DNA from: Alkanindiges illinoisensis DSM 15370
Lineage (GTDB): Bacteria > Pseudomonadota > Gammaproteobacteria > Pseudomonadales > Moraxellaceae
DNA: 32,000 nt
Direction of reading: 5' to 3'
Assembly: GCF_000619845.1 (NCBI RefSeq)
Contig: NZ_JHUX01000003.1
Span: 400,064 to 432,063 of the forward strand
Shown: positions 931 through 19,599 of the stretch, in pieces
Layout of the letters: each line of letters begins with the position of its first letter
Numbering within the stretch: position 1 is the stretch's first letter
Position numbers and translations under genes: made by a program
The notes under the pieces: model-generated
What the model saw: the letters and a program-made list of their open reading frames with translations, nothing else
Told to the model about the DNA's origin: nothing
Database searches by the model: none

Positions 931-1665
931 TTATTTTAGTCCCAATACCTGCTGATAGGGCTTAAAGCCTTCCATCACAGCATTGGCAATCAGTTGAATA
1001 AAGGGTTTGATACTTTTAGAAGTTGTCCACTGATCCAAAGCCTCATAATAGGCTAACCGGTTTTCAACGGTAATCACACAAGGAGGATAACCGGCTTTCA
1101 TCAGTTCCAGATTCATCAGTAAACGGGATGTCCTGCCATTGCCATCAATAAAAGGATGAATGCCAACAAAATCTGCATGAACATAAGCAGCCCGTTCAAC
1201 CGGATGAAGATGAGCGGCCTGTTGATGATACCACTCAACAAACTGATTCATTTTGTCAGCAATCACTGTATGGTCGGGTGGCGTATGGGAGGCACCCGCA
1301 ATCAGTACATTGTTTTGCCGATAGCGACCAGCATTTTCATCATCAATATTTTTTAGGACTAACTGGTGAATATTACGGATTTGCCACTCTGAAAAAGTCT
1401 CATGCTTTTTAATAATATCCTCAACAAAAAAAATGGCATTACGATGGTTAATCGCTTCAAAGTGTTCACGGATTGCTTTACCACCCACCGTAATGCCTTC
1501 TAAGACAACCTTGGTCTCAAGCAAGGTAAGCGTATTGCCTTCAATGGCATTGGAGTGATAAGTCCAGCGTAACACCAAATCATCGTGCAGGTTCTTGACC
1601 ACCGCACCCGGCAGAGGACGGTGATTATCAAGCTGATGCTTTAACTGATCGATTCGTTCAAACAC
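931..1665 (-). CDS. Fic-domain protein (AMPylase family), class II with an N-terminal inhibitory helix
   Basis: It carries the canonical Fic active-site motif HPFIDGNGRTSRLLMN (HxFx[D/E]GNGRxxR). The auto-inhibition motif [S/T]xxxE[G/N] is present upstream as SNAIEGN. The start codon is GTG. Confidence 0.9.
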   Translation of the reverse strand: MFERIDQLKHQLDNHRPLPGAVVKNLHDDLVLRWTYHSNAIEGNTLTLLETKVVLEGITVGGKAIREHFEAINHRNAIFFVEDIIKKHETFSEWQIRNIHQLVLKNIDDENAGRYRQNNVLIAGASHTPPDHTVIADKMNQFVEWYHQQAAHLHPVERAAYVHADFVGIHPFIDGNGRTSRLLMNLELMKAGYPPCVITVENRLAYYEALDQWTTSKSIKPFIQLIANAVMEGFKPYQQVLGLK

Positions 1666-2486: not shown

Positions 2487-2615
2487 ACAATTGATATTAA
2501 GATAAATAATAAATGAGCATTACCAATTTTACTTTAGTAATTTTTGGATTATTTCTGCGGATACTTAAGACCGAAAACGCACTTTGACTGCAATAAATCT
2601 CTAAAAGCATACTCG

Positions 2616-2644
2616 TTGCTATTATGTAGTTATTGCTATAGAAT
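2616..2644 (+). promoter_or_regulatory. Sigma70-like promoter of tetR with an embedded quasi-palindromic operator
   Basis: TTGCTA (2616-2621), 17 bp, TAGAAT (2639-2644). The spacer contains TGTAGTTATTGCTATA (2625-2640), which shares the TGTAG[C/T]TAT half-site with the palindrome at 3274-3289. Confidence 0.4.
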
Positions 2645-2675
2645 GGCATCATTGAATATTTATGGATGTAGTGTT

Positions 2676-3257
2676 ATGGCTGGCCGGCCCCGTCAGTTCG
2701 ATATTGAAAAAGCCACTGAGACTGCGCTGCATCTGTTTATCGAAAAAGGTTACGAAGGCGCATCATTTGCCGAGCTGGTCAAGGCAATGGGCATCAGTCC
2801 ACCCAGCTTTTACGCAGCCTTTGGAAGTAAGGAAGCACTGTTTCGCCGTGTACTGGAACGCTATGTAGTAAGCGCCAGAGCTGCCATGCGTGAAGCAGTG
2901 GCACAGCCTACCGCGCGTGAAGTCGTTAGGCACTTGCTGACTGCTCTAGCGACGGCCGCCACCAGCCACCCTACAGCACGTGGATGCCTATTGGTACAAA
3001 GTGCACTTGTCTCAAGCGATAATTCTGCGGATGTACGGGACGATTTGCGTCTGGAGCGTGAAGTAACGACTGCTGCACTAGCAGCCCGCTTTAGGGAAGC
3101 TGAACAGCGTGGCGACAAAACCTTACCAGGAAACCCGAATGCAATGGCACGACTGACAAGCATGATCCTTAGCGGTATTGCTACTCAGGCAGCCAGTGGT
3201 ATCGAATTTGAAGCATTGATGGGTGCAATCAATGCCTATGTTGACCAGTTCAGCTAA
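2676..3257 (+). CDS. TetR/AcrR-family transcriptional regulator
   Basis: The N-terminal HTH segment is RPRQFDIEKATETALHLFIEKGYEGASFAELVKAMGISPPSFYAAFGSKEALF. I chose the ATG at 2676 (MAGRPRQF). The listed ORF start at 2544 adds a Cys/Tyr-rich extension that is not protein-like and overlaps the predicted promoter. Confidence 0.85.
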   Translation: MAGRPRQFDIEKATETALHLFIEKGYEGASFAELVKAMGISPPSFYAAFGSKEALFRRVLERYVVSARAAMREAVAQPTAREVVRHLLTALATAATSHPTARGCLLVQSALVSSDNSADVRDDLRLEREVTTAALAARFREAEQRGDKTLPGNPNAMARLTSMILSGIATQAASGIEFEALMGAINAYVDQFS

Positions 3258-3270
3258 TTTTTTTAATCAA

Positions 3271-3292
3271 TTTTGTAGCTATAACTACAAAA
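3271..3292. promoter_or_regulatory. Palindromic operator candidate between tetR and mdaB
   Basis: TTTTGTAGCTATAACTACAAAA. The core TGTAGCTATAACTACA (3274-3289) is self-complementary at 14 of 16 positions. It lies 41 bp upstream of the mdaB start. Confidence 0.4.
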
Positions 3293-3332
3293 AACTGCCG
3301 AATACCCAAATATCTACTCATGGAGTAACACA

Positions 3333-3914
3333 GTGAAAAAAGTTCTTATTATCAACGCACACCTACCTTATTCATACTCACCGGGACAACTCAACGCGAC
3401 ATTGGTTGAACGGGCAGAAGCATACTTTCGCGGTAAAGGCTATGAAGTGGAAAAAACCATTGTCGCAGAAGGCTATGATGTTGCTATCGAAATCGAAAAA
3501 ATCAGGTCGGCAGATGTGGTCTTCCTTCAAATGCCTTTAAACTGGATGGGCATGCCCTGGACATTTAAGAAATATACCGACGAGGTGTGGAGTGCAGGAA
3601 TGTTTGGTATCTTGTCTAATACCGATGGCCGCAGTTCAGCGGCTCCCAAGGACAATTACGGCATGGGTGGCCTGCTGAAGGGGCGTTACATGCTGTCGGT
3701 AACTGCAAATGCGCCAGCTGAAGCCTTTAATGATCCTGCTCAAGCCTATTTTGCGGGACGAAGCGAAGATGATCTGACCTGGCCCATTGACCTGAACTTT
3801 AAATGGATTGGGCTTGAGAAAGTGCCATCGTTTTGGGCCTATGATGTCATGAAGAATCCTCAAATTGAGAATGACTTGGTGCGGTTTGATGCGCACCTGT
3901 CGACTCACTTTTAA
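3333..3914 (+). CDS. mdaB: NADPH:quinone oxidoreductase MdaB (flavodoxin-like fold)
   Basis: It is 193 aa, the same length as E. coli MdaB, and collinear with it as I recall the sequence (ILIIN...GQLN.TL...ADVV..QMP..WMG.PW..KKY.D.V...YML). The start is GTG, preceded by GGAG. Confidence 0.8.
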   Translation: MKKVLIINAHLPYSYSPGQLNATLVERAEAYFRGKGYEVEKTIVAEGYDVAIEIEKIRSADVVFLQMPLNWMGMPWTFKKYTDEVWSAGMFGILSNTDGRSSAAPKDNYGMGGLLKGRYMLSVTANAPAEAFNDPAQAYFAGRSEDDLTWPIDLNFKWIGLEKVPSFWAYDVMKNPQIENDLVRFDAHLSTHF

Positions 3915-4178: not shown

Positions 4179-4646
4179 TTACTCATCCGCCCGAATCCAG
4201 ACTACTGTTCTACCCAGCACACTGGTGCCTACATAACCGCGCATTTTCAAGCGGCGGCCATCAGGAGACAGTTTGGCTTTACCGCGATAAATCTTTCCAG
4301 AATCGATATCAAGTGCATATCCATCTGTATATTCATTAGCTTTGCCATTCGATTTTAAGCCCCATACCAATTTAAGACCAAGTAGTGGTTTATTTTGAAA
4401 AGGCGGTGGGCACTTGGTGCAATATGGATTTTCTTTGCGGAGGCTGTCAACAAACCGGTCAATTCTTACCGAAAATGTGCCGTCCGGTTCTTCAATGACT
4501 TCACTAATTGATTTAACCACACCGCTTTTAGAGTCGACGACTTTCCATTTGCCCACAATGTCATTATTGGCGAACAGAGCAGGTGAGTAAAACAATGCTG
4601 CCATGACAAGCAAGCTGTTTGTTAGAACTTTAATATTCATGATCAA
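4179..4646 (-). CDS. DUF2147-family periplasmic protein
   Basis: It has the signal peptide MIMNIKVLTNSLLVMAALFYSPALFA. The DUF2147 pattern is present: GKWK..D..sG..KS...I, C.KCP...NKPLLGL...W, G.I.D...GK.Y..K..L..DG..L..RGY.G.S.LGRT..W.R. Confidence 0.75.
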   Translation of the reverse strand: MIMNIKVLTNSLLVMAALFYSPALFANNDIVGKWKVVDSKSGVVKSISEVIEEPDGTFSVRIDRFVDSLRKENPYCTKCPPPFQNKPLLGLKLVWGLKSNGKANEYTDGYALDIDSGKIYRGKAKLSPDGRRLKMRGYVGTSVLGRTVVWIRADE

Positions 4647-4731: not shown

Positions 4732-4792
4732 GGCGAGGGTTCATAGAAAAATCCCACACGTGATCTAATTCACATATGGGGTTTAATCAGTC

Positions 4793-5845
4793 TTACTTTG
4801 TCCCGTTCGGAGTATTAAAGGCTTTCAATGGCACTGGCATGTGGAGAGCCAGTTGTGCATCCTTAACCACATCAAGGCGCAATACTTTATTTGCGCCCAG
4901 TTCATCCAGTAAGCGGCTTAGTGGGCCACCATTTCGTACCAGTTTCACATTTCTGGGGAAAAGCTGTTGCCCAAATGACAGCGTGTTAGACTGCACTGAG
5001 GCCTGGTTCCACACGCCATCAATTTTGTGAATCATGGTTTTGGTTTCCAGATGCGATTGGGGTTTAACCTGTTTAATCTGGGGTAGTGGGGCAGTCAGGC
5101 TTAAATCCGTTTTGCCATTGGTGTCTAAAACACTGGCTTTGACTTGTGTCCCGATATTGACATCAATATTGGTGAGCCATTTGGGAAGCTGATAGCCATA
5201 GACACCACGGACTCGTGCAATTTCGGTATCGACTGGCAAGGCCAGCACGTGCCCGTAAAAATGACGATTACGCATGGCACCGAATAGTTCGGTTGCATTT
5301 AATCCTTTTGCATCAGGCTTGCGAATCACCACAGCTACCGAGACTTCATCGTACGGATCGGCATCAGCGACGGTATAGGAATAAAAGGTTAGTGAAACCA
5401 GTCCATATCCTGGAAAGGCCTGCAATGGTTCAAGCGGCGCCGGTAATTTTTCCCGTAGACGTGATACTGGGGCTAACATCAATAGCTGTACATTGCTGGT
5501 ACGATAATAAAAGTTTGGTGACCAGACTGGTCCAACCCGACTATTCACCAGTTTTTTTGGAATGCTCCGGAAAAAGTCAATATTTCCTGCGGCTGGGTCT
5601 TTGGCCACTTCATCCAGATTAGGGTTCATACGGAAACGGTCGTAATAGCCTCCTTTAGGCACTTTAACTTTCTGATTCCCGTATTCAATTTCGATAAATT
5701 GTTGGGGTGTACTGCTCATTGCTAGCGGTACTGAAGGATTGGCTTTAACGGCCTCTGCTGAATCAGTTGCATGCGCATGGGTAGCCATGAAAACAACCAT
5801 TGCTGTAGCTGACATCGAGTGCGGAAATTTCCAACGATTAAACAT
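4793..5845 (-). CDS. Acetoacetate-decarboxylase-like (ADC/beta-cone fold) family protein, paralog 1, with an N-terminal signal-peptide-like extension
   Basis: The segment ARVRGVYGYQLPKW resembles the ADC-family GRE..G.PK catalytic-lysine motif. YYRTSNVQLLMLAPVSRLREKLPAPLEP parallels the C. acetobutylicum ADC segment YRTDMDALRKVVPEPLE. The N-terminus is MFNRWKFPHSMSATAMVVFMATHAHA/TDS. An alternative internal start at 5719 (MSSTPQQ) would remove the signal peptide. Confidence 0.55.
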   Translation of the reverse strand: MFNRWKFPHSMSATAMVVFMATHAHATDSAEAVKANPSVPLAMSSTPQQFIEIEYGNQKVKVPKGGYYDRFRMNPNLDEVAKDPAAGNIDFFRSIPKKLVNSRVGPVWSPNFYYRTSNVQLLMLAPVSRLREKLPAPLEPLQAFPGYGLVSLTFYSYTVADADPYDEVSVAVVIRKPDAKGLNATELFGAMRNRHFYGHVLALPVDTEIARVRGVYGYQLPKWLTNIDVNIGTQVKASVLDTNGKTDLSLTAPLPQIKQVKPQSHLETKTMIHKIDGVWNQASVQSNTLSFGQQLFPRNVKLVRNGGPLSRLLDELGANKVLRLDVVKDAQLALHMPVPLKAFNTPNGTK

Positions 5846-5875
5846 TTCGGGCTTCTCATCATTTGTCCTGATGAA

Positions 5876-5906
5876 ATGCTAGGTTTAAAGCATGGTTGAA
5901 GGTCAA
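5876..5906 (-). promoter_or_regulatory. MerR-type promoter with 19-bp spacer (site S3), driving ADC-like paralog 1
   Basis: The minus strand reads TTGACC-TTCAACCATGCTTTAAACC-TAGCAT. The -10 ends 30 nt upstream of the ATG at 5845. Confidence 0.5.
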
Positions 5907-6206
5907 GCGTTTTAATAGAATGGCTGGAGTCTATGCTGTTATCAAATAATATTATTTAATTACAAAGACATAATTTGGGTTGAGGGGCATGGAGAGCCTA
6001 GGAAAAATTTATTTTTATGATGGATATACTTAAATATTACTTAAAACGATTCATTTATTCATGGGCAAGATTGTTTAGTGTAGGGCATAAGCAAATACCA
6101 GTCGAGTGAAGATTAGATGAATAAAGATCAGTGCATGTAAAAGACAACCTGTTTTTCCGCATCATGCGAGAAAGATGGGAAAAGCAGGCATGCTTTGCTG
6201 CAAATG

Positions 6207-7193
6207 CTATTGTTTTACAATTAGAGCCAGTTTACCGACATGCTGGCCTTGATCAAGCAGCTCATGGGCCTGCCGCGCTTCGCTTAACTCAAAGCTTTTA
6301 TACAGCAAGGGTTTTAACTGGCCTTGCGCAATGAGTGGCCATACTTTGTCCTGCAAGGCTGCCATGACTTCTGCCTTGGCTTCTGGGGTTTGCGAGCGTA
6401 ATGTTGCACCCAGGTGAGTTAAGCGTTTTGCCAGTAATGGAAAAAAATTAACCTGTTCGGCCAGTCCCTGCATCACACCTACTTGCAGGATGGTGCCATT
6501 CATCGCAGCCACCTCGTAATTACGCTGGATATAATTACCGGCAATAATATCCAGGACAAAATCCACGCCACGACCTTGGGTGTGCTGCTTCACCTGTTCG
6601 ACAAAATCATCTTTACGATAATTAATTGCCACATCAGCGCCAAGGGCAACGCTGGCTTTTTGGTGTTCGGCGCTCGAAACGGTGGTAAAAATCTGGGTTG
6701 CGCCAAATGCCCGGGTGAGCATGGTGGCGGTGGTGCCAATGCCAGACGTGCCACCATGAATCAGGATAGAGCTGCCCGGGCGCCATTTGGCATGCTGGAA
6801 CAAGTGTGACCAGACCGTCATGAAGGTTTCCAGCAAGATTCCACCTTCCACCAGTGTGAGGCCTTGCGGAATAAACAGCACGTTGTCCTGATGGGCAACC
6901 ACATATTCAGCATAACCACCGCCCTGAACCAGGGCACACACTTCATCGCCTGCCTTAAAGCTGCTGACCCGTTTTCCCACCTGTTTGACAATACCAGAAA
7001 CTTCCAGCCCCGGAATATCAGTCACTCCGGGAGGTGGATTATATAAGCCCTTACGCTGCATGACATCCGGGCCATTGATACCCGCTGCCACCACCTCAAT
7101 CAGTACACCATTATCGGTCAGTGCTGGCATGGGACGTTCACTAAGCTCAATGACTTCCGGCCCACCAGCGCCATTAAAAATAATACTTCGCAT
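6207..7193 (-). CDS. NAD(P)H:quinone oxidoreductase, zinc-independent MDR family (Qor/PIG3-like)
   Basis: It has an MDR N-terminal GroES-like domain (GVLIEVVAAGINGPDVMQRKGLYNPPPG..DIPGLEVSGIV). The Rossmann motif is IHGGTSGIGTTA. AGGAGA precedes the ATG. Confidence 0.9.
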   Translation of the reverse strand: MRSIIFNGAGGPEVIELSERPMPALTDNGVLIEVVAAGINGPDVMQRKGLYNPPPGVTDIPGLEVSGIVKQVGKRVSSFKAGDEVCALVQGGGYAEYVVAHQDNVLFIPQGLTLVEGGILLETFMTVWSHLFQHAKWRPGSSILIHGGTSGIGTTATMLTRAFGATQIFTTVSSAEHQKASVALGADVAINYRKDDFVEQVKQHTQGRGVDFVLDIIAGNYIQRNYEVAAMNGTILQVGVMQGLAEQVNFFPLLAKRLTHLGATLRSQTPEAKAEVMAALQDKVWPLIAQGQLKPLLYKSFELSEARQAHELLDQGQHVGKLALIVKQ

Positions 7194-7237
7194 TGATCAT
7201 CTCCTGATCCCCCGCTTGCCTATTTAGTTTTAGACAT

Positions 7238-7278
7238 TAAAAATAAACACAGGATTTGCGGGAGGAGCTAAATCCTGC
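7238..7278 (-). terminator. Rho-independent terminator after the aldehyde dehydrogenase gene
   Basis: The minus strand reads GCAGGATTT-(12 nt loop)-AAATCCTGT followed by GTTTATTTTTAA. Confidence 0.5.
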
Positions 7279-7292
7279 CTTTGCGGGTATGG

Positions 7293-8744
7293 TTAAAGCT
7301 TGGATGAGCTGGTTTTCTTACCTAAAGTAACCTGAAGGGCCAGTTCCATAAAACGGCCAAACGGGGCCTGTAGCAGGCTTGGCAGATTCCAGCGCCCCTG
7401 GTCAAAGACACCTTTGGCATGACTCATGGAGCGGAAGCCTTCAATACCGTGATAGGCCCCCATACCACTGGCACCAACGCCACCAAAGGGCAGGTCATCC
7501 TGTGCCACATGAATAATGGTGTTATTGAGACCCACATTGCCCGAGGTAGTCCGTTTAAGCACTTTCTGGCAGTCTGCATCTTTTTCGCCAAAATAATACA
7601 GGGCCAGTGGACGTGGGCGATGATTGATATAGTCAATCACCTCATCAATACTGCGATAGGTGCGAACAGGCAGGATTGGGCCAAAAATTTCTTCCTGCAT
7701 GATGGCATCATCATCATGAGCGCCGACCACCAGTGTGGGTGCCAGCGTACGTACGCGGTTAGCCGCAGACTCCGGTTTTACCCCAACTTCAATCACGCGT
7801 GCACCCTTTTGACGGGCATCGTCCAGCAGATTTTGTAAGCGGTCATAATGGCGGTCATTCACAATGGAAGTGTAATCATTGCTATGAGGCCCATCAGGAT
7901 AAAAGCGGCTAACCGTGGCATGATATTGCTGGATAAAATCCTCAACATCATCTTCATGCACCAGCGCATAATCGGGTGCAACACAAGTTTGCCCACCATT
8001 TGACAGCTTGCCATAGGCAATACTGCGTATGGTTCGTTCATTGACCTGACCACGGGCAACGATCACTGGACTCTTACCACCTAGTTCAAGGGTGAGTGGC
8101 ACCAGATTGTCACTGGCGGCTTGCATCACCTTGCGGCCAACTGGTGTGCTGCCTGTAAACAACAAATGATCAAACGGCAGGCGACTAAACGCCGCACCAA
8201 CTTCCGGCCCACCCAGCACCACGGCTACTTCTTCCACGGGAAAGGTGGCGGCCAGCATGCGCTCAAGTACTTCACTGGTACGGGGCGTGAGCTCAGAAGG
8301 TTTAAGCATAGCCCGATTACCGGCGGCTAGTGCCGTTGCCAGCGGAATCAGGGTTAGGGAAACCGGATAGTTCCATGGTGCCATCACACCAACAATACCT
8401 TTGGGCTGGTATTCCACATGGGCTTGCGCGCTGCGGTAGAACAAACTGACATGGCGGCGCTCGAGTTTCATAAAGCGGCGCAGGTGCCGGGATAAATAAT
8501 CAATGGACTGTACAACACCCACCAGTTCCATGACATCGGTTTCATGATAGGAGCGGTGGCCAAAGTCTGCACTGATGGCTTGTTGCAGCTCACTACGATA
8601 TTCAAGGACGGCTGCACGCAATTTGGCAAGCTGTGCCTTGCGTTGTTTCAGGTTTGCAGGCTCTGTGTTTAGAAAAGCCATGCGCTGACGGGCGAGAATG
8701 TCAGCCGCAGTGCTAGTACTATTCAATTCTTGTGCATTTGTCAT
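7293..8744 (-). CDS. NAD(P)+-dependent aldehyde dehydrogenase, class-3 / coniferyl-aldehyde dehydrogenase-like
   Basis: ALDH signatures are present: LTLELGGKSP (catalytic Glu), GQTCVAPDY (catalytic Cys), FTGST.VG and EEIFGPILPV. The length of 483 aa and the N-terminal coiled segment are typical of the CalB-like subgroup. Confidence 0.9.
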   Translation of the reverse strand: MTNAQELNSTSTAADILARQRMAFLNTEPANLKQRKAQLAKLRAAVLEYRSELQQAISADFGHRSYHETDVMELVGVVQSIDYLSRHLRRFMKLERRHVSLFYRSAQAHVEYQPKGIVGVMAPWNYPVSLTLIPLATALAAGNRAMLKPSELTPRTSEVLERMLAATFPVEEVAVVLGGPEVGAAFSRLPFDHLLFTGSTPVGRKVMQAASDNLVPLTLELGGKSPVIVARGQVNERTIRSIAYGKLSNGGQTCVAPDYALVHEDDVEDFIQQYHATVSRFYPDGPHSNDYTSIVNDRHYDRLQNLLDDARQKGARVIEVGVKPESAANRVRTLAPTLVVGAHDDDAIMQEEIFGPILPVRTYRSIDEVIDYINHRPRPLALYYFGEKDADCQKVLKRTTSGNVGLNNTIIHVAQDDLPFGGVGASGMGAYHGIEGFRSMSHAKGVFDQGRWNLPSLLQAPFGRFMELALQVTLGKKTSSSKL

Positions 8745-8784
8745 TTGAGATTTCCCGGTGTCATCGCAGTGAAAAGCCGTCTAT

Positions 8785-9690
8785 TCAAAGCCCTTTATTT
8801 AAAGGCGTAGGCATATTCAGTACCAGTTGAGCATCCTTAACAACATCTAGACGCAGGATTTTTGCAGCACCTAGTCCATCCAGTAACTGGCTTAACGGGC
8901 CGCCATGCCGTACCAGTTTTACCTTTTTGGGGAAAAGCTGCTGGGCAAATGACAATGTATTGGACTGTACCGATGTGCTGTGCCATACCCCATCCACCTG
9001 ATGAATCATGGTCTTGGTTTCCAGATGCGATTGTGGTTTGACCTGTTGTAGTTTAGGTGTGGGCAGGGTTAAGGTCAGGTCAGTGTTGCCATCAGTATTT
9101 AAGATACTGGCTTGCACTTCTGAGCCAATATCAAGGCTAATATCGGTGAGCCATTTGGGGAGCTGATAACCATAGACACCGCGTGTCCGGGCAATTTCCG
9201 TGTTAACCGGTAAAGCCAGCACATGGGCAAAGAAGCTGCGACGGCGCATGGCATCCAGCAACTCCAGCGCATGAGATCCTGTAGCACCCGGCTGGCGAAT
9301 CACGACGGCTACCGATACCTCATCGTAGGGGTCGTTGTCGCATACTGCGTAGGAAAAGAAAGTTAAAGCCACCAGACCAAATCCCGGAAAAGCTTGCAGC
9401 GGTTCAAGCGGGCTGGGCAAGGCAGCGCGTAGCTTGCTCATCGGCGCGAGCATGAGTAACTGGACATTGCTGCTACGGTAGTAAAAATTCGGTGCCCAGA
9501 CTGGACCAACCCGTGAATTCACCCGCTGCTTGGGGATTCTGCGAAAAAAATCCACATTACCAGCAGCAGGATCCTTGGCAACCTCATCCAGATTGGGATG
9601 CATATGAAAACGGTCATAGTAGCCCCCTTTAGGAACTTCTACGGTTTGGCTACCAAATTTAACTTCAACATGCTGTTGTGCTGTATTCAT
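8785..9690 (-). CDS. Acetoacetate-decarboxylase-like family protein, paralog 2 (no signal peptide)
   Basis: It is collinear with the 4793-5845 product. My hand alignment gives 219 identical of 296 aligned positions. The ARTRGVYGYQLPKW motif is the same. It starts at MNTAQQHVEV, which aligns with residue ~43 of paralog 1. Confidence 0.55.
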   Translation of the reverse strand: MNTAQQHVEVKFGSQTVEVPKGGYYDRFHMHPNLDEVAKDPAAGNVDFFRRIPKQRVNSRVGPVWAPNFYYRSSNVQLLMLAPMSKLRAALPSPLEPLQAFPGFGLVALTFFSYAVCDNDPYDEVSVAVVIRQPGATGSHALELLDAMRRRSFFAHVLALPVNTEIARTRGVYGYQLPKWLTDISLDIGSEVQASILNTDGNTDLTLTLPTPKLQQVKPQSHLETKTMIHQVDGVWHSTSVQSNTLSFAQQLFPKKVKLVRHGGPLSQLLDGLGAAKILRLDVVKDAQLVLNMPTPLNKGL

Positions 9691-9764: not shown

Positions 9765-9795
9765 ACTATAAGTTTTAAGTTCACTTTAAGGTCAA
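9765..9795 (-). promoter_or_regulatory. MerR-type promoter with 19-bp spacer (site S2), driving ADC-like paralog 2 and ALDH
   Basis: The minus strand reads TTGACC-TTAAAGTGAACTTAAAACT-TATAGT. The dyad is TTAAAGT-GA-ACTTAAA. Confidence 0.55.
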
Positions 9796-9879: not shown

Positions 9880-9910
9880 TTGACCTTAAGGTGAGCTTTG
9901 GGTCTACAGT
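9880..9910 (+). promoter_or_regulatory. MerR-type promoter with 19-bp spacer (site S1), driving the alpha/beta hydrolase gene
   Basis: The plus strand reads TTGACC-TTAAGGTGAGCTTTGGGTC-TACAGT. It lies back-to-back with S2 in the same divergent intergenic region. Confidence 0.5.
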
Positions 9911-10029: not shown

Positions 10030-10860
10030 ATGGCATACGTCACAACAAAAGACGGTGTTGAGATTTTTTATAAAGACTGGGGCCCGCGGGATGCCCAGGT
10101 GATTTTCTTTCATCATGGCTGGCCCTTGAGTTCTGATGACTGGGATGCCCAGATGATGTTTTTTTTAGATCAGGGTTTTCGGGTAGTGGCGCATGACCGC
10201 CGTGGGCATGGCCGTTCCAGTCAGGTCTGGGATGGTCACGACATGGATCATTATGCCGATGATGTAGCAGCCGTGGTTAACCAGCTAGGCGTGCAGGGTG
10301 CAATCCATGTGGGGCACTCAACCGGCGGTGGCGAAGTGGTGCGCTACCTGACGCGGCATAGAGATGACCCTGTGCCCAAGGCGGTATTAATTAGTGCTGT
10401 ACCACCCTTAATGGTCAAGACCGACAGCAATCCGGGCGGCTTACCCAAAAAGGTATTTGATGACTTTCAGGCCAAGCTGGCCGCCAATCGGGCAGAATTT
10501 TATAATGAGATTCCTTCTGGCCCTTTTTATAACTATAACCGCCCCGGTGTGGAAGCTTCTGAACCAGTGATCAGGAACTGGTGGCGGCAGGGTATGATGG
10601 GTGGTGCCAAGGCGCATTATGATGGCATTGTGGCTTTCTCCCAGACTGATTTTACCGAAGACCTCAAGCAAATCACCATTCCTGTGCTGGTCATGCATGG
10701 CGATGATGATCAGGTGGTGCCTTATGAAAATTCTGGCCCATTGTCCGCCAAGCTGCTGCAAAACGGCACGTTAAAGACCTACAAGGATTTTCCACACGGG
10801 ATGCCCACAACGCATGCCGAAACCATCAATGCCGATCTTCTGGCATTTATTAAAAGTTAA
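10030..10860 (+). CDS. Alpha/beta hydrolase, non-heme (cofactor-free) haloperoxidase / perhydrolase / arylesterase family
   Basis: The N-terminus is typical of the family: TKDGVEIFYKDWGP...VIFFHHGWPLSSDDWD.QM.F....GFRV.AHDRRGHGRS. It has the nucleophile elbow GHSTGG. An Asp (HGDDDQVVP) and a His (FPHGMP) are positioned to complete the triad. Confidence 0.85.
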   Translation: MAYVTTKDGVEIFYKDWGPRDAQVIFFHHGWPLSSDDWDAQMMFFLDQGFRVVAHDRRGHGRSSQVWDGHDMDHYADDVAAVVNQLGVQGAIHVGHSTGGGEVVRYLTRHRDDPVPKAVLISAVPPLMVKTDSNPGGLPKKVFDDFQAKLAANRAEFYNEIPSGPFYNYNRPGVEASEPVIRNWWRQGMMGGAKAHYDGIVAFSQTDFTEDLKQITIPVLVMHGDDDQVVPYENSGPLSAKLLQNGTLKTYKDFPHGMPTTHAETINADLLAFIKS

Positions 10861-10929: not shown

Positions 10930-11340
10930 TCAATTTGCATCAGGAAAATAGACCTTAAACAGGCGTTGCGCATTTTCTTCACAGCTAATTTCATCAGGCT
11001 TGTCATTAATGGCCTGAATCAGCGTTATCAGATTTTGTTTATTCTCAGCCAGTTTTTTTTCCAGTGCTTCAATTTCACTGACTTTCTGGTTCAGGCTCTC
11101 AATCAGTTTGTCATGGTTCCAAATCGTCATATTGCCTGGCAGCAGGGATTTGATTTCAGCTAAGGAAAAGCCCGCCTGTTGCGCCTGTTTGATCAGTAAT
11201 AATTGTTGAAGGTCAGTATCGCTATACTCGCGATACCCATTGGCTTTACGTTTGGCTTTCGGCAACAGTTTAATTTGTTCATAGTAACGGATGGTTGGGG
11301 TATTCAATCCACTTAAGCGGGAGAGTTCACTAATATTCAT
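10930..11340 (-). CDS. MerR-family transcriptional regulator (short effector region, single Cys, no metal or Fe-S cysteine cluster)
   Basis: The N-terminal wHTH is MNISELSRLSGLNTPTIRYYEQIKLLP...NGYREYSDTDLQQLLLIKQAQQAGFSLAEIKSLL, followed by a coiled-coil dimerisation helix. Start ambiguity: the ATG at 11340 gives the canonical N-terminus. The ATG at 11361 (MSIGQTE...) would be nearly leaderless relative to promoter S5. Confidence 0.85.
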   Translation of the reverse strand: MNISELSRLSGLNTPTIRYYEQIKLLPKAKRKANGYREYSDTDLQQLLLIKQAQQAGFSLAEIKSLLPGNMTIWNHDKLIESLNQKVSEIEALEKKLAENKQNLITLIQAINDKPDEISCEENAQRLFKVYFPDAN

Positions 11341-11350: not shown

Positions 11351-11404
11351 CCTATTGACATTCAAGCTTACTTTAGGCCTAGAGTGCACTTGAATGTCAA
11401 TAGG
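11351..11404. promoter_or_regulatory. Mirror-symmetric control region: two overlapping divergent 19-bp-spacer promoters (S4 + strand, S5 - strand) inside a perfect 16-bp inverted repeat
   Basis: CCTATTGACATTCAAG (11351-11366) pairs with CTTGAATGTCAATAGG (11389-11404). S4 (+) is TTGACA(11355-60)-TTCAAGCTTACTTTAGGCC-TAGAGT(11380-85). S5 (-) is TTGACA(11400-11395)-TTCAAGTGCACTCTAGGCC-TAAAGT(11375-11370). Confidence 0.55.
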
Positions 11405-11505: not shown

Positions 11506-11536
11506 TTGACATTCAAGTTAGCTTTAACATTAAAGT
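11506..11536 (+). promoter_or_regulatory. MerR-type promoter with 19-bp spacer (site S6), proximal promoter of the DJ-1/epimerase pair
   Basis: TTGACA-TTCAAGTTAGCTTTAACAT-TAAAGT. The dyad is TTCAAGT-TA-GCTTTAA. It lies 85 nt upstream of the ATG at 11621. Confidence 0.55.
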
Positions 11537-11620
11537 CTTTGCCATGGCACAAACGATGCAACGTTTGATGAACATGTTCCACCATAGTACCTATGACAAT
11601 AATCATTGAGGAATCCAGAA

Positions 11621-12427
11621 ATGTTCAAGACTCGAAATGCTTCACACGGTTTGCTCGCGATGTTTGCCTTAATGTTTAGTATGAACTCGACGCAAGCTGT
11701 TGAACCTACTCCTGTAACTACTCAATCCGCTGCTATGGGAAAAATTTTGGTGGTAATGACCAATCATTCGGCTTATCCCACCCGTCAGGACAAGACAGGC
11801 TTATGGTTTACTGAACTAACAGAATTCTACGATGTCATGCAGGCAGCAGGGTTGCAAATGGACTTTACCAGCCCTGAAGGCGGCGAGATTCCCCTGGATG
11901 ATCGTAGTATGAAACCTATTTATCTCAATGCTGATGCACGTAAACATCTGGCCGATCCGGCATTTATGGCACGTCTTAAAACAACCTTACCAGCCCGTTC
12001 AATTGATCCATCGCAATATAAGGCCATTTATTATACGGGTGGTCATGGCACCATGTGGGATTTTCCCAATAACAAAGATCTAAAGAAAATCAGTGAACAG
12101 ATCTATCGCCAGGGCGGTATGGTGACAGCAGTGTGTCATGGTGTTGCCGGATTACTGCCGCTACAGGACGATCAGGGTCAGCCACTGATTAGTGGACGTA
12201 CAGTCACCGGTTTTTCCAATACTGAGGAGGTACTTGCAGGCATTAAATCACAGGTTCCTTTCTTATTGCAGGATGAGTTAAGCAAACGTGGTGCGCACTA
12301 CAAGAAAGCCCTAATTCCATTCACCTCGTATGCAGTCACTGATGACCGGGTTATTACAGGTCAGAATCCGCAGTCAGGCGGTGAGGTTGGTAAAGCGTTG
12401 CTTAAGCGTCTAAATGCTGGGAAGTAA
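11621..12427 (+). CDS. DJ-1/PfpI superfamily protein, Hsp31-like (glyoxalase III/deglycase-type), predicted exported
   Basis: YTGGHGTMWDF...VTAVCHGVAGLL matches the Hsp31 nucleophile-elbow region as I recall it (GGHG...CHGP). A strong SD (GAGGAA) precedes the ATG at 11621. The N-terminus MFKTRNASHGLLAMFALMFSMNSTQA/VEP looks like a Sec signal peptide. Confidence 0.8.
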   Translation: MFKTRNASHGLLAMFALMFSMNSTQAVEPTPVTTQSAAMGKILVVMTNHSAYPTRQDKTGLWFTELTEFYDVMQAAGLQMDFTSPEGGEIPLDDRSMKPIYLNADARKHLADPAFMARLKTTLPARSIDPSQYKAIYYTGGHGTMWDFPNNKDLKKISEQIYRQGGMVTAVCHGVAGLLPLQDDQGQPLISGRTVTGFSNTEEVLAGIKSQVPFLLQDELSKRGAHYKKALIPFTSYAVTDDRVITGQNPQSGGEVGKALLKRLNAGK

Positions 12428-12475
12428 TTTATATGCTGGGAAATTATCTGTAATTGATTAGTGAGGAGAAGCGTC

Positions 12476-13402
12476 ATGCAAACGATATTAGGTGCGAATG
12501 GCCAGATTGGTCGAGAAGTGGCAATCTGCTTAAAGGAAAGTTTTACTGACGATATTCGTCTGGTCAGCAGAAAACCGCAAAAGGTGAATGACACGGATCA
12601 ACTGTTTAGCGCAGATTTACTTGATCCCCAGCAGGCGCTTGATGCTGTTGAAGGTTCGGACATCGTTTACATGACGGTCGGACTGCCGATGGATACCGAG
12701 CTATGGGTGAAGCAGTGGCCAATTCTCATGCACAATGTGATTGAGGCCTGTATCACCCATAGCGCCAAGCTGGTGTATTTTGATAACACCTATATGTATC
12801 CGCAAACTGCAACGCCGCAAACCGAAACAACTCCATTTTTACCCAACGGGGCTAAGGGTAAGGTTCGTGCCGACATTGTCAATGAGCTGCTTGAAGCGAT
12901 GGCGCAAAAACGGATACAGGCAGTAATCTGCCGGGCACCAGAATTTTATGGGCCGGGTATCACGCAAAGTATTACCAACAGTACCATTATCGACAATATC
13001 AAGGCCGGGAAAAAACCCAAGGTGTTTTTACGCGATGATACCTTACGTAGCCTGATTTATACCCCGGATGCCAGTCGTGCGATGGCGCTGCTGGGTAATA
13101 CGCCTGATGCGTATGGACAGACCTGGCATCTACCCGCTGATGATCAGCGTCTGACCTATCGTCAGTTTATTGAGTTGGCAGCACAGATCTTTAAGGTTGA
13201 TCCAAGTTATACAGTGGTTAAAAACTGGCAGCTCAAGCTGGGTGGGCTTTTTAATAAAACGATTCGTGACGCAGCCGAGTTATTGCCACGCTACAAAGTC
13301 GACAATATCTTTGTTTCAGATAAATTTAAGCAACGGTTTCCAGAGTTTAAAGTCACAACTTTTAGAGAAGGGCTAACCGCCATTCGGGATGAAAAGGGTT
13401 AA
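12476..13402 (+). CDS. NAD(P)-binding epimerase/dehydratase-family protein (atypical/extended SDR)
   Basis: The N-terminal glycine motif is ILGANGQIGREV, and the overall pattern is that of an extended SDR. The SD GAGGAG lies 7 nt before the ATG at 12476. A gap of only 48 nt from the DJ-1 gene suggests co-transcription. Confidence 0.8.
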   Translation: MQTILGANGQIGREVAICLKESFTDDIRLVSRKPQKVNDTDQLFSADLLDPQQALDAVEGSDIVYMTVGLPMDTELWVKQWPILMHNVIEACITHSAKLVYFDNTYMYPQTATPQTETTPFLPNGAKGKVRADIVNELLEAMAQKRIQAVICRAPEFYGPGITQSITNSTIIDNIKAGKKPKVFLRDDTLRSLIYTPDASRAMALLGNTPDAYGQTWHLPADDQRLTYRQFIELAAQIFKVDPSYTVVKNWQLKLGGLFNKTIRDAAELLPRYKVDNIFVSDKFKQRFPEFKVTTFREGLTAIRDEKG

Positions 13403-13517: not shown

Positions 13518-14582
13518 ATGATTTCTAGTCCGACCAATGAACAAGACTCTGAAGATTATGTACTGGCCAGCATTCTGGAGCAATGTCTTGCCAACTGGCG
13601 TCGACATGGCATTAACACCGATGCCTTAAGTCATATGGTTGGTGTTGATCTGGCAAAAGCAGCGGCAAGTCCAGAAGGCTGGATCAGTGTCCGGTTACTG
13701 GAAGACATGGTACAAAAAATAGCCTGGTTTGCACCTGACCCGCTACTGGGCCTGCATGCTGCCAGTATGGAGGATATGGGCGGTTTTGGCGTATTGGGCT
13801 ATCTTGAGCAAACCTGTGGCACCTTGCAGGAAATTTACGATGCGACCATGCGTTATGAGCGGTTAGTCAGCGATATTGGCACCACCACACTACGGCATGA
13901 ACCGGGTATGGTTTTTTGCATCTGGCACTGTAAAACCGAAGATCCGCTGTTTCGCCGGCATGCCACCGAATTTATTTTAGGCTGCTGGGTACGCCATATC
14001 CGCTTTGCCAGATTGCCGCTGAGCAAACTATTAAAAGAAGTGCATTTTAGTCATCCTGCGCCAAGCAACCCTGCCTTACAGGCAGACTACGAGAATTATT
14101 TTGGCTGCCCGGTTAAGTTTGATCAGCCCGAATCAGCATGGGTGGTGCCTGTCGAGATGATGACTGCCCGGTTAAGGCTACCTAGTCCTAGTTTACAGCT
14201 TACCTTAGAGCGTCATGCTCGCCTGTTGCTGAGTGAACGACGTAAAAAACCGTCATTACGGGAGCGCATCAAGAGCCAGTTACGGGTATTACTGATGAAG
14301 GGCAATATTTCCCGGGATTATCTGGCCAGTGAGCTTGGCGTGAGCAGCCGCCATTTACATCGGCAGTTACAAAGTGCAGGGAGTAGCTATAGTCAGCTGG
14401 TCAATGAACTACGCATTGAGATGGCCAAAACTTTACTACAAGACCCATTGTTAAGTGTCGACGCAGTAGCACAGCGCTTGGGGTTTAGTGAAGCAACGCC
14501 GTTTATTCGCTGGTTCCGGCAGCATTTTGGCAATACCCCCAGACAATATCGTCAGCAGTTAAATGCTGATACACCACAATAA
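13518..14582 (+). CDS. AraC/XylS-family transcriptional regulator with an N-terminal AraC-binding-like (OruR/virulence-regulator type) sensor domain
   Basis: The C-terminal double HTH reads ISRDYLASELGVSSRHLHRQLQSAGSSYSQLVNELRIEMAKTLLQD..LSVDAVAQRLGFSEATPFIRWFRQHFGNTPRQYR. Confidence 0.9.
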   Translation: MISSPTNEQDSEDYVLASILEQCLANWRRHGINTDALSHMVGVDLAKAAASPEGWISVRLLEDMVQKIAWFAPDPLLGLHAASMEDMGGFGVLGYLEQTCGTLQEIYDATMRYERLVSDIGTTTLRHEPGMVFCIWHCKTEDPLFRRHATEFILGCWVRHIRFARLPLSKLLKEVHFSHPAPSNPALQADYENYFGCPVKFDQPESAWVVPVEMMTARLRLPSPSLQLTLERHARLLLSERRKKPSLRERIKSQLRVLLMKGNISRDYLASELGVSSRHLHRQLQSAGSSYSQLVNELRIEMAKTLLQDPLLSVDAVAQRLGFSEATPFIRWFRQHFGNTPRQYRQQLNADTPQ

Positions 14583-14756
14583 AATAAAGTGTTAAAACAG
14601 ATGCCAAGTCAGGGTTTAAAAAACAGTGGATGGATGCAAGAAATAGATTAAAAAAGATCAGTGAATCGCTACTTGGTGCCTTAAACGTATAAATAGTCCA
14701 CCGCTCAGGCTGATCGCCTTAAACTCTTTGGCCAGTTGACGGCCAAAGTGGGATCT

Positions 14757-16271
14757 ATGAATAAATCAACCAACTCTGAAGGGCTAGAATTTCCTGGCGC
14801 TGCTTCATCCAGTAAACCCAGCACCACACCCGCTGCAAAACATATTATTCAGTCTGCTTTAGCAGCAGTCCCATCACCTGCGGCTAATAATGTTAAACAT
14901 GAAAAAAACTGGCGCAAGCATTATCCGATTTATTTCCGCGCCCTGGTTGAGGCAGGCATTGCCTCAGTGGATCACCCTGTAAAGATTGCCCGGGCTGGAC
15001 TTTCCGCCGCGCAGCAATTATTTATATTTAACCGGGGAACCCAGCAGCTCCCACTTGTAGATGCCATGAATCATTATCAGGAGCAGCCATTTGAATCCTT
15101 TACCCTTAAAGGCAATGGAAGTGCCGAGGTTGAACCCTGGACGGTACCTTATCATGGCCAGCAATTACAGGGACAGGCATTATTAAACCAGATTGAGCGT
15201 TGGGAACAAGAGCACATTATTGAACCCAGTCATGCTAAGGCGCTGCGTGCCGTACAGGCGCATCCCGAATGGTTTGACTTATCCGACCGCACCGTCGTGT
15301 TGTTTGGTGCAGGTTCGGAGGCTGGCCCACTAACCTGGTTATCAAAATGGCGCGCCAATATTGTGGCGGTTGATTTACCCAGTCCAGCGATCTGGGAGAA
15401 GATTACCGGGATTGTGGCTAAGGGTAATGCAACCCTGATTGCCCCGCAGCAAACTGGCAGTGATGGCAAAATGCAGCTGGGCGCAAACCTATTAACCCAG
15501 ACTCCGGAAATTGCCAACTGGCTTAATACATTTACCCAGTCCTTAGACCTTGCCGGGATTGCCTATCTGGATGGTGAAAAACATGTTCGGGTATCCATGG
15601 CGATGATTGCTATTATGGATAAGGTCAGCCAGGCCAAGCCGGATAGCAGTATTATGTTTATGCTGACGCCAACTGATATTTACGCTATTCCCAAGCAGGT
15701 TGTGCAAAGCAGCTTGATGATTCGCAAACGACGTAAGCAGGTTGAAAAGCTATTAACCCATGCCATAAAAAAGCTCTCTTTATCGCATTTCTTTACGCCC
15801 ATCAATGGAACCTTGTTGCCATCAGACAATGGACAGCAGTATGGCATTTCTGACTGTATGGTGATTGAGCAGGGACCTAACTATGCACTGGCCAAACGCT
15901 TACAGCAATGGTATGCACTATTGGCCCATAGCCGGGGACAGCGGGTAGCCATTAATATTGCACCTTCCACCACCACGCTATCTGTGGTGAAAAACCCATT
16001 GCTAAAGGCAGCTTTTGCTGGCGCTGATCTGTTCAAGGTTGAAACTTTTAATCCTGAAACCACCAATGCCATTATGGCAGCGCTCTGGGTGCATGATCTA
16101 CACAATCCGGACAGTGCGGCTAATCCGCAAAAGCCGCTAAATCATCCTTTGGAACTCATCATGGAAGGCGCAAACCATGGGGGGCTGTGGCATGTGGCAT
16201 ACCTTGCCCGAACGGCACTGCCATTTGCTGCGGTTTATGGCTGGGGCAAGCAAAAGTTAAAGTTGGTTTAG
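14757..16271 (+). CDS. Uncharacterised protein with a central Rossmann-type dinucleotide-binding motif
   Basis: This is a long ORF with protein-like composition. VVLFGAGSEAGPLTWLSKWRANIVAVDL (nt ~15297-15380) is a beta-alpha-beta GxGxxxG motif ending in an acidic residue. The N-terminus is a low-complexity S/T/P/A tract. I recognise no family. The start is either ATG 14757 or TTG 14736. Confidence 0.6.
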   Translation: MNKSTNSEGLEFPGAASSSKPSTTPAAKHIIQSALAAVPSPAANNVKHEKNWRKHYPIYFRALVEAGIASVDHPVKIARAGLSAAQQLFIFNRGTQQLPLVDAMNHYQEQPFESFTLKGNGSAEVEPWTVPYHGQQLQGQALLNQIERWEQEHIIEPSHAKALRAVQAHPEWFDLSDRTVVLFGAGSEAGPLTWLSKWRANIVAVDLPSPAIWEKITGIVAKGNATLIAPQQTGSDGKMQLGANLLTQTPEIANWLNTFTQSLDLAGIAYLDGEKHVRVSMAMIAIMDKVSQAKPDSSIMFMLTPTDIYAIPKQVVQSSLMIRKRRKQVEKLLTHAIKKLSLSHFFTPINGTLLPSDNGQQYGISDCMVIEQGPNYALAKRLQQWYALLAHSRGQRVAINIAPSTTTLSVVKNPLLKAAFAGADLFKVETFNPETTNAIMAALWVHDLHNPDSAANPQKPLNHPLELIMEGANHGGLWHVAYLARTALPFAAVYGWGKQKLKLV

Positions 16272-16404: not shown

Positions 16405-16770
16405 TCATAAGGCCGGCTGATGGTTCAGCGCAAACTGCCGGCGCGCTTCTTCAATCTGGCCATGATGCGCTTCGACCCAAAGCCAGACCCCACAGAAAGC
16501 GCTGCCCAAACTCTTACCAAGTGGGGTTAGGCTGTACTCGACACAGGGTGGTACAACCGGATGTACTACCCGACTGACCAGGCCATCACTTTCCATTTGA
16601 CGCAAAGTTTTAGTCAGCATTTTCTGACTAATTCCCTTAACTTGTTTACCAAGCTGGGTGAACCTCAGGATATGCGCCTCTTCTAATGCTTCTAGAATCA
16701 GCATTGTCCATTTATCGGCAACGCGGCCAATAATCTCATGCACCAGTTTTTCTACCGCCGGGTTAGTCAT
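16405..16770 (-). CDS. HxlR-family (MarR-like wHTH) transcriptional regulator
   Basis: VADKWTMLILEALEEAHILRFTQLGKQVKGISQKMLTKTLRQMESDGLVSRVVHPVVPPCVEYSLTPLGKSL is the HxlR signature region. The ATG at 16770 is preceded by AGGAGA. The upstream part of the listed ORF is therefore probably untranslated. Confidence 0.85.
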   Translation of the reverse strand: MTNPAVEKLVHEIIGRVADKWTMLILEALEEAHILRFTQLGKQVKGISQKMLTKTLRQMESDGLVSRVVHPVVPPCVEYSLTPLGKSLGSAFCGVWLWVEAHHGQIEEARRQFALNHQPAL

Positions 16771-16847
16771 GGCTGGTGTCTCCTGCCGGATTTGTAGCGT
16801 CTGTTTATCATCTTGCACTTGAATGGTTATCACTCTCTTTTAGGGAG

Positions 16848-19597: not shown

Positions 19598-19599
19598 GG

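Follow-up and report, generated by a model that had tools for sequence, protein, structure and literature searches.

Why would a bacterium keep, in a single gene cluster, two diverged copies of a gene whose close homologs are named acetoacetate decarboxylase in NCBI and UniRef, and provide only one of them with what looks like a signal peptide? This question is raised by a stretch of 32,000 nucleotides from Alkanindiges illinoisensis DSM 15370 (contig NZ_JHUX01000003.1, positions 400,064 to 432,063), here called the window. In it, two collinear paralogs related to acetoacetate decarboxylase (ADC), which we call paralog 1 and paralog 2, stand on either side of genes for an aldehyde dehydrogenase (ALDH) and a PIG3-type quinone oxidoreductase (QOR), and the four open reading frames (ORFs) are all on the minus strand. 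The initial annotation described this arrangement as a diverged duplication around the ALDH and QOR genes, with one copy apparently exported, and suggested a route from a lyase through an aldehyde to an acid. The four ORFs were recovered with the same coordinates and strands. The observation is therefore confirmed, and each of the conditions named beforehand as refuting it (family, start codon and lysine) turned out in its favour. Its interpretation is supported in part: our results make it fairly probable that the two genes are an old pair of cytoplasmic and exported ADC-like enzymes within a MerR-controlled regulon for the detoxification of electrophiles and carbonyls. Positions below are those of the window, and the features are collected in Table 1.

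Divergent members of the ADC superfamily

Pfam ADC (PF06314) is the sole Pfam match of each paralog, with E = 2.5e-5 and 24.4 bits for paralog 1 and E = 5.2e-6 and 26.6 bits for paralog 2. The same family is matched by 27 of 28 relatives, at best with E = 4.6e-19, and PF06314 is assigned to many close homologs in precomputed annotation. A search of the PDB with a diverse profile (A3) gave a marginal match to 3BH2 (E = 0.59). We then compared with the PDB, using Foldseek, an AlphaFold2 (AF2) model of paralog 2 built from 25 homologs (mean pLDDT 77.5, pTM 0.74). All 24 matches at E <= 1e-3 belong to the ADC superfamily, with probability 1.00, E between 1e-12 and 2e-9, and a TM score of 0.52-0.64 on target length; the next match has E = 1e-2. 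They include the ADCs of Chromobacterium and Clostridium (3BGT and 3BH2), the Legionella protein 3C8W, MppR, the Methanoculleus protein 3CMB, the aldolase-dehydratase Sbi00515 and Swit_4259. The membership in the ADC family that had been proposed from the motif thus holds at the level of the predicted fold.

Both paralogs contain the motif AR(V/T)RGVYGYQLPKW, whose lysine is K222 in paralog 1 and K179 in paralog 2. An exhaustive representative search retrieved 479 cluster representatives at E <= 1e-3. In 28 full-length relatives, with identities as low as 24%, just six columns do not vary (P67, Y122, P161, G171, P178 and K179, in the numbering of paralog 2), and E124 is conserved in at least 90%. 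A profile-profile alignment (hhalign) with three solved true ADCs, including the Clostridium acetobutylicum enzyme (CaADC, whose sequence was verified as that of 3BH2), had a probability of 84.9% and E = 6.5e-6 over 175 columns. In this alignment G171-K179 falls on G107-K115 and E124 on Glu76, and a single-sequence alignment likewise puts K179 on K115. The motif lysine is thus the counterpart of the Schiff-base lysine of CaADC, in agreement with the initial annotation, which had equated the two regions. We conclude that both proteins are predicted to be lysine-imine enzymes with the ADC fold, and that they represent a divergent, uncharacterised branch of the superfamily with proteins of about 300 residues, as judged from alignments and model together.

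An old pair with one member predicted to be exported

The paralogs are identical at 220 of 296 positions (74%, with 89% positives, 0 gaps and E = 9e-175 in BLASTP), one more than had been counted by hand. The diverged direct repeat that their genes were said to form was also recovered by a repeat finder, in constant register, with a spacing of 3974 nt and 72-73% DNA identity. Across the protein-aligned core the DNA identity is 70.6%, and it is just 47% at third codon positions. Codon differences comprise 119 synonymous and 76 non-synonymous changes, which shows that both copies are under purifying selection and that synonymous sites are near saturation. Pseudogenisation of either copy was ruled out, because every invariant column is retained in both.

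The age of the pair can be read from its relatives. Paralog 1 has orthologs at 96% and 85% identity. In a neighbour-joining tree (200 bootstraps), all 13 sampled long forms make a single clade with 95% support, which spans Alkanindiges and Acinetobacter, and paralog 2 is placed among the short forms with 100% support. Wherever a source names a long form, it comes from Acinetobacter; A. baumannii, with a cluster of 407 sequences, and A. baylyi are among these. Both forms, long and short, occur in one cluster in A. courvalinii, A. gyllenbergii, A. calcoaceticus and Acinetobacter sp. Ac_5812. Together, the single clade and these two-copy clusters suggest that export was gained once, in an ancestor within the Moraxellaceae. 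The pair in the window is therefore ancient and did not arise by a duplication around ALDH and QOR. Hence, one part of the duplication initially described stands, as the paralogs do flank both genes, and the other does not, as the pair arose earlier and not at this place. A recent tandem duplication was ruled out by the 47% identity at third positions and by the orthologs of each copy in other genera.

Relative to paralog 2, the N-terminus of paralog 1 is longer by 43 residues, close to the 45 or so that had been likened to a Sec signal peptide ending in AHA. The n-region of this predicted signal peptide has a charge of +2 and no acidic residues, its maximum KD10 is 1.90, and A-H-A occupies positions -3 to -1. 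Long homologs (340-357 residues) recur, with N-termini that have diverged in sequence under the same architecture. In 12 long forms the protein starts with MFN or similar, the n-region has a charge of +1 to +3 and no acidic residues, the hydrophobic core has at least 10 residues (maximum KD10 of 1.9-2.7), position -3 is A, S, T or V, and position -1 is A. A variable linker of about 20 residues, rich in Ser, Thr, Asn or Gln, precedes the conserved domain in the long forms. Read from their sequences, the long forms contain no Tat-type S/T-R-R-x-F-L-K twin-arginine motif (P0117 and P0275 have a bare RR), and none has a lipobox or a Cys at +1. The N-terminus of paralog 1 is, by these features, a conserved signal peptide of predicted Sec (SPase I) type.

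A MerR-type operator shared with detoxification genes

The paralogs also share their type of promoter with other genes of the cluster. Scanning the window for the operator pattern TTGACNTTNAANNNNNCTTNANNNNTANNNT with at most 2 mismatches gave 6 sites, against 0.03 expected, all with a 19-bp spacer. The sites have the form TTGACC-19 bp-TAnnnT, with the dyad TTnAAGT-N2-ACTTnAA in the spacer. A long 19-bp spacer is a hallmark of MerR-activated promoters (PMC5001606). The MerR-type promoter that had been noticed upstream of paralog 1, with the -10 element ending 30 nt before the start codon, is exact in this respect and is conserved upstream of homologs. Two of the sites overlap divergently at the start of the regulator gene; the inverted repeat that contains them (27 nt, 85% complementary, with abutting arms) can be likened to the divergent merR/merT arrangement.

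We compared 80 loci from species-representative genomes of Burkholderia, Paraburkholderia, Ralstonia, Pseudomonas, Acinetobacter, Aquirhabdus, Shinella, Bradyrhizobium and a Neisseriaceae bacterium (individual loci are cited by their L numbers). The promoter is found at a fixed distance 5' of 81 of the 83 ADC-like genes in these loci, against 0.9 in shuffled upstream regions. There are 197 operator sites, of which 82 precede an ADC-like gene, 32 a cytoplasmic DJ-1 gene, 31 an α/β-hydrolase gene, 12 a DJ-1 gene with a signal peptide, 5 an epimerase-like gene and 33 other genes. The downstream ORFs were extracted for 21 of these last 33 sites, and 20 of them encode proteins of 410-417 residues with Old Yellow Enzyme (OYE) motifs; one such product was scanned against Pfam and matched PF00724 with E = 4.9e-55. 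An OYE of about 412 residues (PF00724) lies behind the operator in L057, L061, L064, L065, L067, L071 (about 5600-4360, minus strand), L072, L078, L001 and others. The 32-kb window has no OYE gene, so this member may be encoded elsewhere in the genome or may have been lost.

The ADC-like enzyme is the most constant member of the regulon. Its conserved partners are the MerR regulator, encoded within 7 kb in 57 of the 80 loci, DJ-1, the α/β-hydrolase, which is a neighbour in 39, and the OYE. An operator common to ADC-like, DJ-1, α/β-hydrolase and OYE genes points to a regulon for the detoxification of reactive carbonyls or electrophiles.

The longest ORF of the regulator starts at 11361, just 8 nt past the -10 element. 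This short gap, and the conservation of Met8 in 74 of 78 orthologs, make Met8 at 11340 the likely true start. The sole conserved Cys of these regulators corresponds to position 127 of the window protein, in the C-terminal tail, and is present in 76 of the 78. We rejected an assignment to NmlR/AdhR, because the regulator scores 57 bits with the NmlR model of NCBIfam against a cutoff of 175, and because it has no Cys at position 54, where Cys54 is absolutely conserved in NmlR/AdhR regulators (PMC5001606). Many clusters of Burkholderia and Paraburkholderia (e.g. L013, L016, L028) have two MerR paralogs, one by the ADC-like gene and the other by the cytoplasmic DJ-1 and ALDH genes, unlike the window, which has a single MerR gene.

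Gene order and transcription units

Paralog 2 and ALDH are separated by 40 nt, with no terminator found between them, and are probably co-transcribed. The gap between ALDH and QOR contains a hairpin at 7240-7283 on the minus strand (CAGGATTT-12 nt-AAATCCTG, then TGTTTATTTTT), which was not called by the terminator scan because its loop exceeds 8 nt. It could be an attenuator, or a terminator that splits the operon, and with this hairpin and T run QOR may be just partly co-transcribed. Paralog 1 is probably monocistronic, given its separate promoter and the terminator-like hairpin that follows it. The nearest NCBIfam model of the ALDH is an MdlD-like benzaldehyde dehydrogenase, with a score below cutoff.

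The same gene order is found in a metagenomic contig (L081) that encodes an ortholog of paralog 2 with about 90% identity: short copy, ALDH, QOR, long copy, DUF2147 and Fic. A DUF2147 gene lies downstream of the exported paralog both there and in another Alkanindiges locus (L005); its membership in the system is uncertain. The Fic-domain gene is syntenic, downstream of DUF2147 in both (931-1665, minus strand, in the window; 6359-7093 in L081). The window differs from L081 by the insertion, between the DUF2147 and Fic genes, of genes for a TetR regulator and a flavodoxin-like NAD(P)H quinone reductase (2544-3914), which have no MerR-type operator.

On the other side of the regulator, the predicted periplasmic DJ-1 protein has counterparts beyond this family. 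DJ-1 proteins with a signal peptide (MFK..., AxA) occur in five genera (Burkholderia, Neisseriaceae, Aquirhabdus, Acinetobacter and Pseudomonas; loci L004, L019, L034, L035, L039 and L071-L075), often with a cytoplasmic DJ-1 nearby behind the same operator. The regulon thus appears to have cytoplasmic and periplasmic versions of DJ-1 outside the Moraxellaceae already. This pairing would parallel that of the ADC-like proteins, and the Moraxellaceae may have extended the same logic to the ADC-like enzyme. The members with a predicted periplasmic version are the cofactor-free ones only, namely ADC-like and DJ-1. The gene for an epimerase/NmrA-like protein is probably part of the DJ-1 operon, and this adjacency recurs in L039.

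Table 1. Features of the ADC-like gene cluster and its surroundings in the window
Feature	Position	Strand	Remarks
DUF2147 protein with signal peptide	4179-4646	minus	Pfam DUF2147
Intrinsic-terminator-like hairpin and T run past paralog 1	4753-4780	minus	hairpin scan/sequence
Paralog 1, ADC-like enzyme, predicted exported	4793-5845	minus	ORF, 350 aa; Lys222 at 5182-5180
Predicted Sec signal peptide of paralog 1	5768-5845	minus	MFNRWKFPHSMSATAMVVFMATHAHA then TD; cleavage predicted after AHA; variable linker to about codon 46
MerR-type promoter/operator of paralog 1	5876-5906	minus	TTGACC, 19-bp spacer, TAGCAT; -10 ends 30 nt before ATG 5845
QOR, PIG3-family NAD(P)H quinone/alkenal oxidoreductase	6207-7193	minus	328 aa; TIGR02824, 430.8 bits (cutoff 296.8)
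ALDH, aldehyde dehydrogenase	7293-8744	minus	483 aa; Pfam Aldedh, E = 2.5e-87
Paralog 2, ADC-like enzyme, predicted cytoplasmic	8785-9690	minus	ORF, 301 aa; predicted Schiff-base Lys179 at 9156-9154, Glu124 at 9321-9319
MerR-type promoter/operator of the paralog 2-ALDH operon	9765-9795	minus	TTGACC, 19-bp spacer, TATAGT
MerR-type promoter upstream of the α/β-hydrolase	9880-9910	plus	2 mismatches to the pattern
α/β-hydrolase, non-haem haloperoxidase/esterase-like	10030-10860	plus	Pfam Abhydrolase_1, E = 1.1e-30; regulon member
MerR-family regulator	10930-11340	minus	Pfam MerR_1, E = 3.7e-20; also MerR, MerR-DNA-bind
Overlapping divergent MerR-type promoters at the regulator start	11355-11385; 11370-11400	plus; minus	within the inverted repeat 11351-11404
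MerR-type promoter of the exported-type DJ-1 gene	11506-11536	plus	pattern match
DJ-1/PfpI protein with signal peptide	11606-12427	plus	likely start MFK at 11621; Pfam DJ-1_PfpI; predicted periplasmic
NAD-dependent epimerase/NmrA-like protein	12461-13402	plus	Pfam Epimerase; 33 nt past DJ-1

A proposed detoxification system and its alternatives

In the system that we propose, the MerR regulator, encoded 1.2 kb away, would sense an electrophile or an oxidant through its single conserved Cys and activate the regulon. The two paralogs would be transcribed from the promoters with 19-bp spacers. Paralog 2 would act in the cytoplasm, co-transcribed with ALDH and possibly with the quinone/alkenal reductase, and paralog 1 would be made with a Sec signal peptide, cleaved after AHA, and act in the periplasm. 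The enzymes that depend on NAD(P)H or FMN (ALDH, QOR, OYE) would stay in the cytoplasm, and the cofactor-free ones (ADC-like and DJ-1) would also work in the periplasm.

The chemistry can be suggested only tentatively. It may consist of an iminium-catalysed hydration and retro-aldol cleavage of an α,β-unsaturated or dicarbonyl compound, with the small aldehydes passed on to ALDH. This would be the reverse of the reaction of the aldolase-dehydratase Sbi00515, as given in its PDB entries. It would also come close to the initial idea of a lyase, an aldehyde and an acid, set in detoxification and not in catabolism. We see as similarly speculative, though possible, the broader proposal that the ADC-like protein is a cofactor-free iminium detoxifier at the core of an undescribed proteobacterial MerR electrophile regulon, whose periplasmic arm in Acinetobacter (ADC-like and DJ-1) would intercept the toxin before it reaches the cytoplasm.

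Several points weigh against the proposed system. Both Pfam ADC matches fall short of the gathering score (29.8) and span positions 32-139 of the 238 in the profile, NCBIfam has no model for ADC-like proteins, and sequence searches of the PDB with paralog 2, with a profile of close homologs (A1) and with a distant relative (P0241) gave nothing useful. In the AF2 model, pLDDT falls under 50 in residues 1-70 and again in residues 171-175, which closely precede the lysine. No other long form of the set has an h-region as weak as that of the window protein (KD10 = 1.9), and the Shine-Dalgarno (SD) sequence at ATG 5845 is poor. An ALDH gene directly 3' of the ADC-like gene is found in few lineages. 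We infer the export and cleavage of paralog 1 from conserved architecture, and we likewise infer that the regulator at 10930-11340 acts on these sites and that the inducer is an electrophile. Finally, our searches of the full-text literature, which left most subscription journals outside their coverage, found no paper on this ADC-like subfamily or on the regulon, and hence no independent functional support. The matches were unrelated: the genistein-induced canonical ADC blr7028 of Bradyrhizobium, Legionella lpg0672 in a proteome list of outer membrane vesicles, and a Cupriavidus paper.

The alternative that survives best, though we consider it unlikely, is the one initially suggested: a dedicated catabolic route, in two compartments, in which an ADC-like lyase produces an aldehyde that ALDH converts into an acid for growth. 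It draws on the 40 nt and the single promoter that link paralog 2 to ALDH, on the gene order of the metagenomic contig, and on the presence of ALDH within 7 kb in 32 of the 80 loci. On these grounds paralog 2 does seem to head an operon with ALDH, as had been stated, but the link is specific to the lineage. The adjacency of the two genes is rare beyond it: their order is nearly kept in Shinella (L064), and the ALDH gene of most genomes either lies at another position of the cluster or is missing. Furthermore, there are no genes for a transporter or for downstream assimilation, and the regulator is an activator of MerR type, not a substrate-specific catabolic one. Co-regulated DJ-1, OYE, QOR and α/β-hydrolase are typical of electrophile defence, and the conserved partners of the ADC-like gene (MerR, DJ-1, α/β-hydrolase and OYE) thus favour the detoxification of electrophiles over a dedicated catabolic route.

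A different possibility is that the ADC-like proteins are not turnover enzymes, and scavenge or bind carbonyls stoichiometrically through the reactive lysine. This would suit a gene that is often monocistronic and strongly regulated, and that has no universally linked partner from which a substrate could be deduced. However, homologs across α-, β- and γ-proteobacteria have more than 100 invariant columns, including the equivalent of Glu76, which fits a precise active site, and the characterised proteins with the ADC fold in the PDB are all enzymes. We therefore regard scavenging as improbable.

Marginally less probable still is that the database name is right and that these are genuine acetoacetate decarboxylases (EC 4.1.1.4), making acetone from acetoacetate in the metabolism of ketone bodies or polyhydroxybutyrate (PHB). 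The name, the ADC fold and the conserved equivalents of Lys115 and Glu76 would be expected from such enzymes. Yet, true acetoacetate decarboxylases are determined by Arg29 and Glu61. In the hhalign alignment, whose confidence is moderate in this part, Arg29 of CaADC aligns to Ser73 (with Arg72 adjacent) and Glu61 to Thr110, and this clade has V-Y where the canonical GRExxGxPK motif has R-E. Identity to the solved ADCs is 13-15%, and the Pfam scores stay below the gathering score. The neighbourhood contains no genes for PHB or acetoacetate; the partner genes code for detoxification enzymes controlled by a MerR activator, and an exported copy would make little sense for acetoacetate. Because Arg29 and Glu61 are not conserved, these proteins are probably not acetoacetate decarboxylases, and their database name is probably wrong.

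It is very improbable that the regulon is a metal response, of the kind of copper sensing by CueR, with ADC-like proteins serving in metal stress. CueR is the best NCBIfam match of the regulator (TIGR02044, 80.8 bits), and the -35 element and left half-site presumably resemble those of the copA promoter. CueR binds Cu(I) through a pair of cysteines. The score is, however, far under the cutoff of 147.4, and the regulators have one conserved Cys and no second one, thus no CueR-like pair; we rejected an assignment to CueR for both reasons. Moreover, none of the 197 operator sites examined precedes a gene for a metal transporter or chaperone.

Finally, the least credible alternative, that the long N-terminus is an artefact of ORF calling and that both copies are cytoplasmic, with translation of paralog 1 starting at the in-frame ATG at 5719 (codon 43), can appeal to the weak SD before ATG 5845 but is largely refuted by comparison: codon 43 also lacks an SD; the internal ATG is not shared by the Alkanindiges and Acinetobacter orthologs, whose frame stays open and which keep the signal-peptide-like sequence, with a strong SD (AGGAGGAA) ahead of the long start in Acinetobacter; and the MerR-type promoter is always 5' of the long start, and its distance to the GGYYDR anchor is 196-219 nt, compared with about 130 nt for the short forms. 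The long start preferred in the initial annotation is thus the conserved one.

Other features of the window

The cluster is surrounded by many further small modules for stress and detoxification, none of which has the MerR-type operator. Besides the TetR and quinone reductase genes mentioned above, positions 16405-23274 contain a divergent pair of HxlR and SDR genes and a LysR regulator gene adjoining those of an MFS/HlyD/outer-membrane protein efflux pump. An ORF of 511 codons with a TTG start (14736-16271, plus strand), downstream of a gene for an AraC-family regulator (13518-14582), has no Pfam match at E <= 1e-3. The sole Rfam match in the window is a full-length match to 5_ureB_sRNA (RF02514) at 31203-31485 on the minus strand, with 78.4 bits. 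It lies in a urease region (UreD at 29441-30289), and is probably conserved ureB coding sequence and not a small RNA. Positions 23001-29000, with genes for cation efflux, a beta-lactamase fold and a low-affinity iron permease, have a GC content of 0.38-0.42, against about 0.47-0.51 elsewhere, and may have been horizontally acquired.

Significance

The ADC-like protein is about 70% identical from Bradyrhizobium to Acinetobacter, and is very probably misannotated in the hundreds of genomes where it is called acetoacetate decarboxylase. Its gene is the target found most constantly under this MerR-type stress regulator, and since the operator can be written down, it offers an experimental handle on function. 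Much around it is already known, including the fold, the lysine chemistry and MerR regulons for carbonyl stress, and the proteins themselves are in databases. What appears to be undescribed is the place of this ADC subfamily at the core of such a regulon, the operator, and an exported paralog with the ADC fold; we know of no described extracytoplasmic enzyme with this fold. If indeed there is none, the pairing of an apparently exported ADC-like enzyme with a DJ-1 of exported type suggests that reactive carbonyls are countered in the periplasm, a line of defence that has received little study in Gram-negative bacteria. A. baumannii carries the long, exported-type form, and the system may bear on its survival of electrophiles derived from the host or from disinfectants.

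Comparison with known systems

The best structural matches of the window proteins are the ADCs of Clostridium acetobutylicum and Chromobacterium violaceum (3BH2 and 3BGT; E = 9.5e-13, TM 0.61-0.64 on target length). Equivalents of Lys115 and Glu76 are kept, but those of Arg29 and Glu61 are not, the identity is as low as stated above, and the context and regulation differ; a decarboxylase function of the window proteins is unlikely. MppR, from enduracididine biosynthesis (4JM3 and related entries), has the same fold (E = 3e-11) and, according to PDB titles, uses Schiff-base chemistry on 2-oxo acids. It is encoded in a natural-product gene cluster, whereas the window genes include no biosynthetic neighbours.

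Sbi00515 of Streptomyces bingchenggensis (4ZBO, 4ZBT, 6EEJ) and Swit_4259 (5UPB) have the same fold too (Foldseek E = 4e-10 to 2e-9), and are members of the ADC superfamily that are not decarboxylases. In these proteins, like in those of the window, Arg29 and Glu61 of CaADC are not conserved by alignment. They are cofactor-free and act on carbonyl or enone compounds, as their PDB titles indicate, and a comparable lysine chemistry is implied for the window proteins by the conserved Lys and Glu. The window proteins differ from them by an identity of 13-14%, by an extra N-terminal segment of about 45 residues with GGYYDR, by V-Y in place of the R-E of GRE(I/L)xGxPK, by their setting in a MerR detoxification regulon, and by the predicted export of one paralog.

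Regarding regulation, AdhR and NmlR (Haemophilus, Neisseria) are MerR activators that act at promoters with long spacers on aldehyde-detoxifying dehydrogenases (PMC5001606), as we propose here. The AdhR regulon of B. subtilis includes the DJ-1/PfpI protein YraA, going by the title of Nguyen et al. 2009 as cited in PMC5045206. Unlike these regulators, that of the window scores below the NmlR cutoff and has its single conserved Cys in the C-terminal tail, and its regulon is larger and different, with ADC-like, OYE and α/β-hydrolase genes and two types of DJ-1. A further parallel is NemR-nemA-gloA of E. coli, in which an OYE ene-reductase and carbonyl-detoxifying enzymes are co-induced by electrophiles under NemR, a repressor of the TetR family. 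The system of the window is set apart from it by an ADC-like member and a predicted periplasmic arm, neither of which is known from the NemR system.

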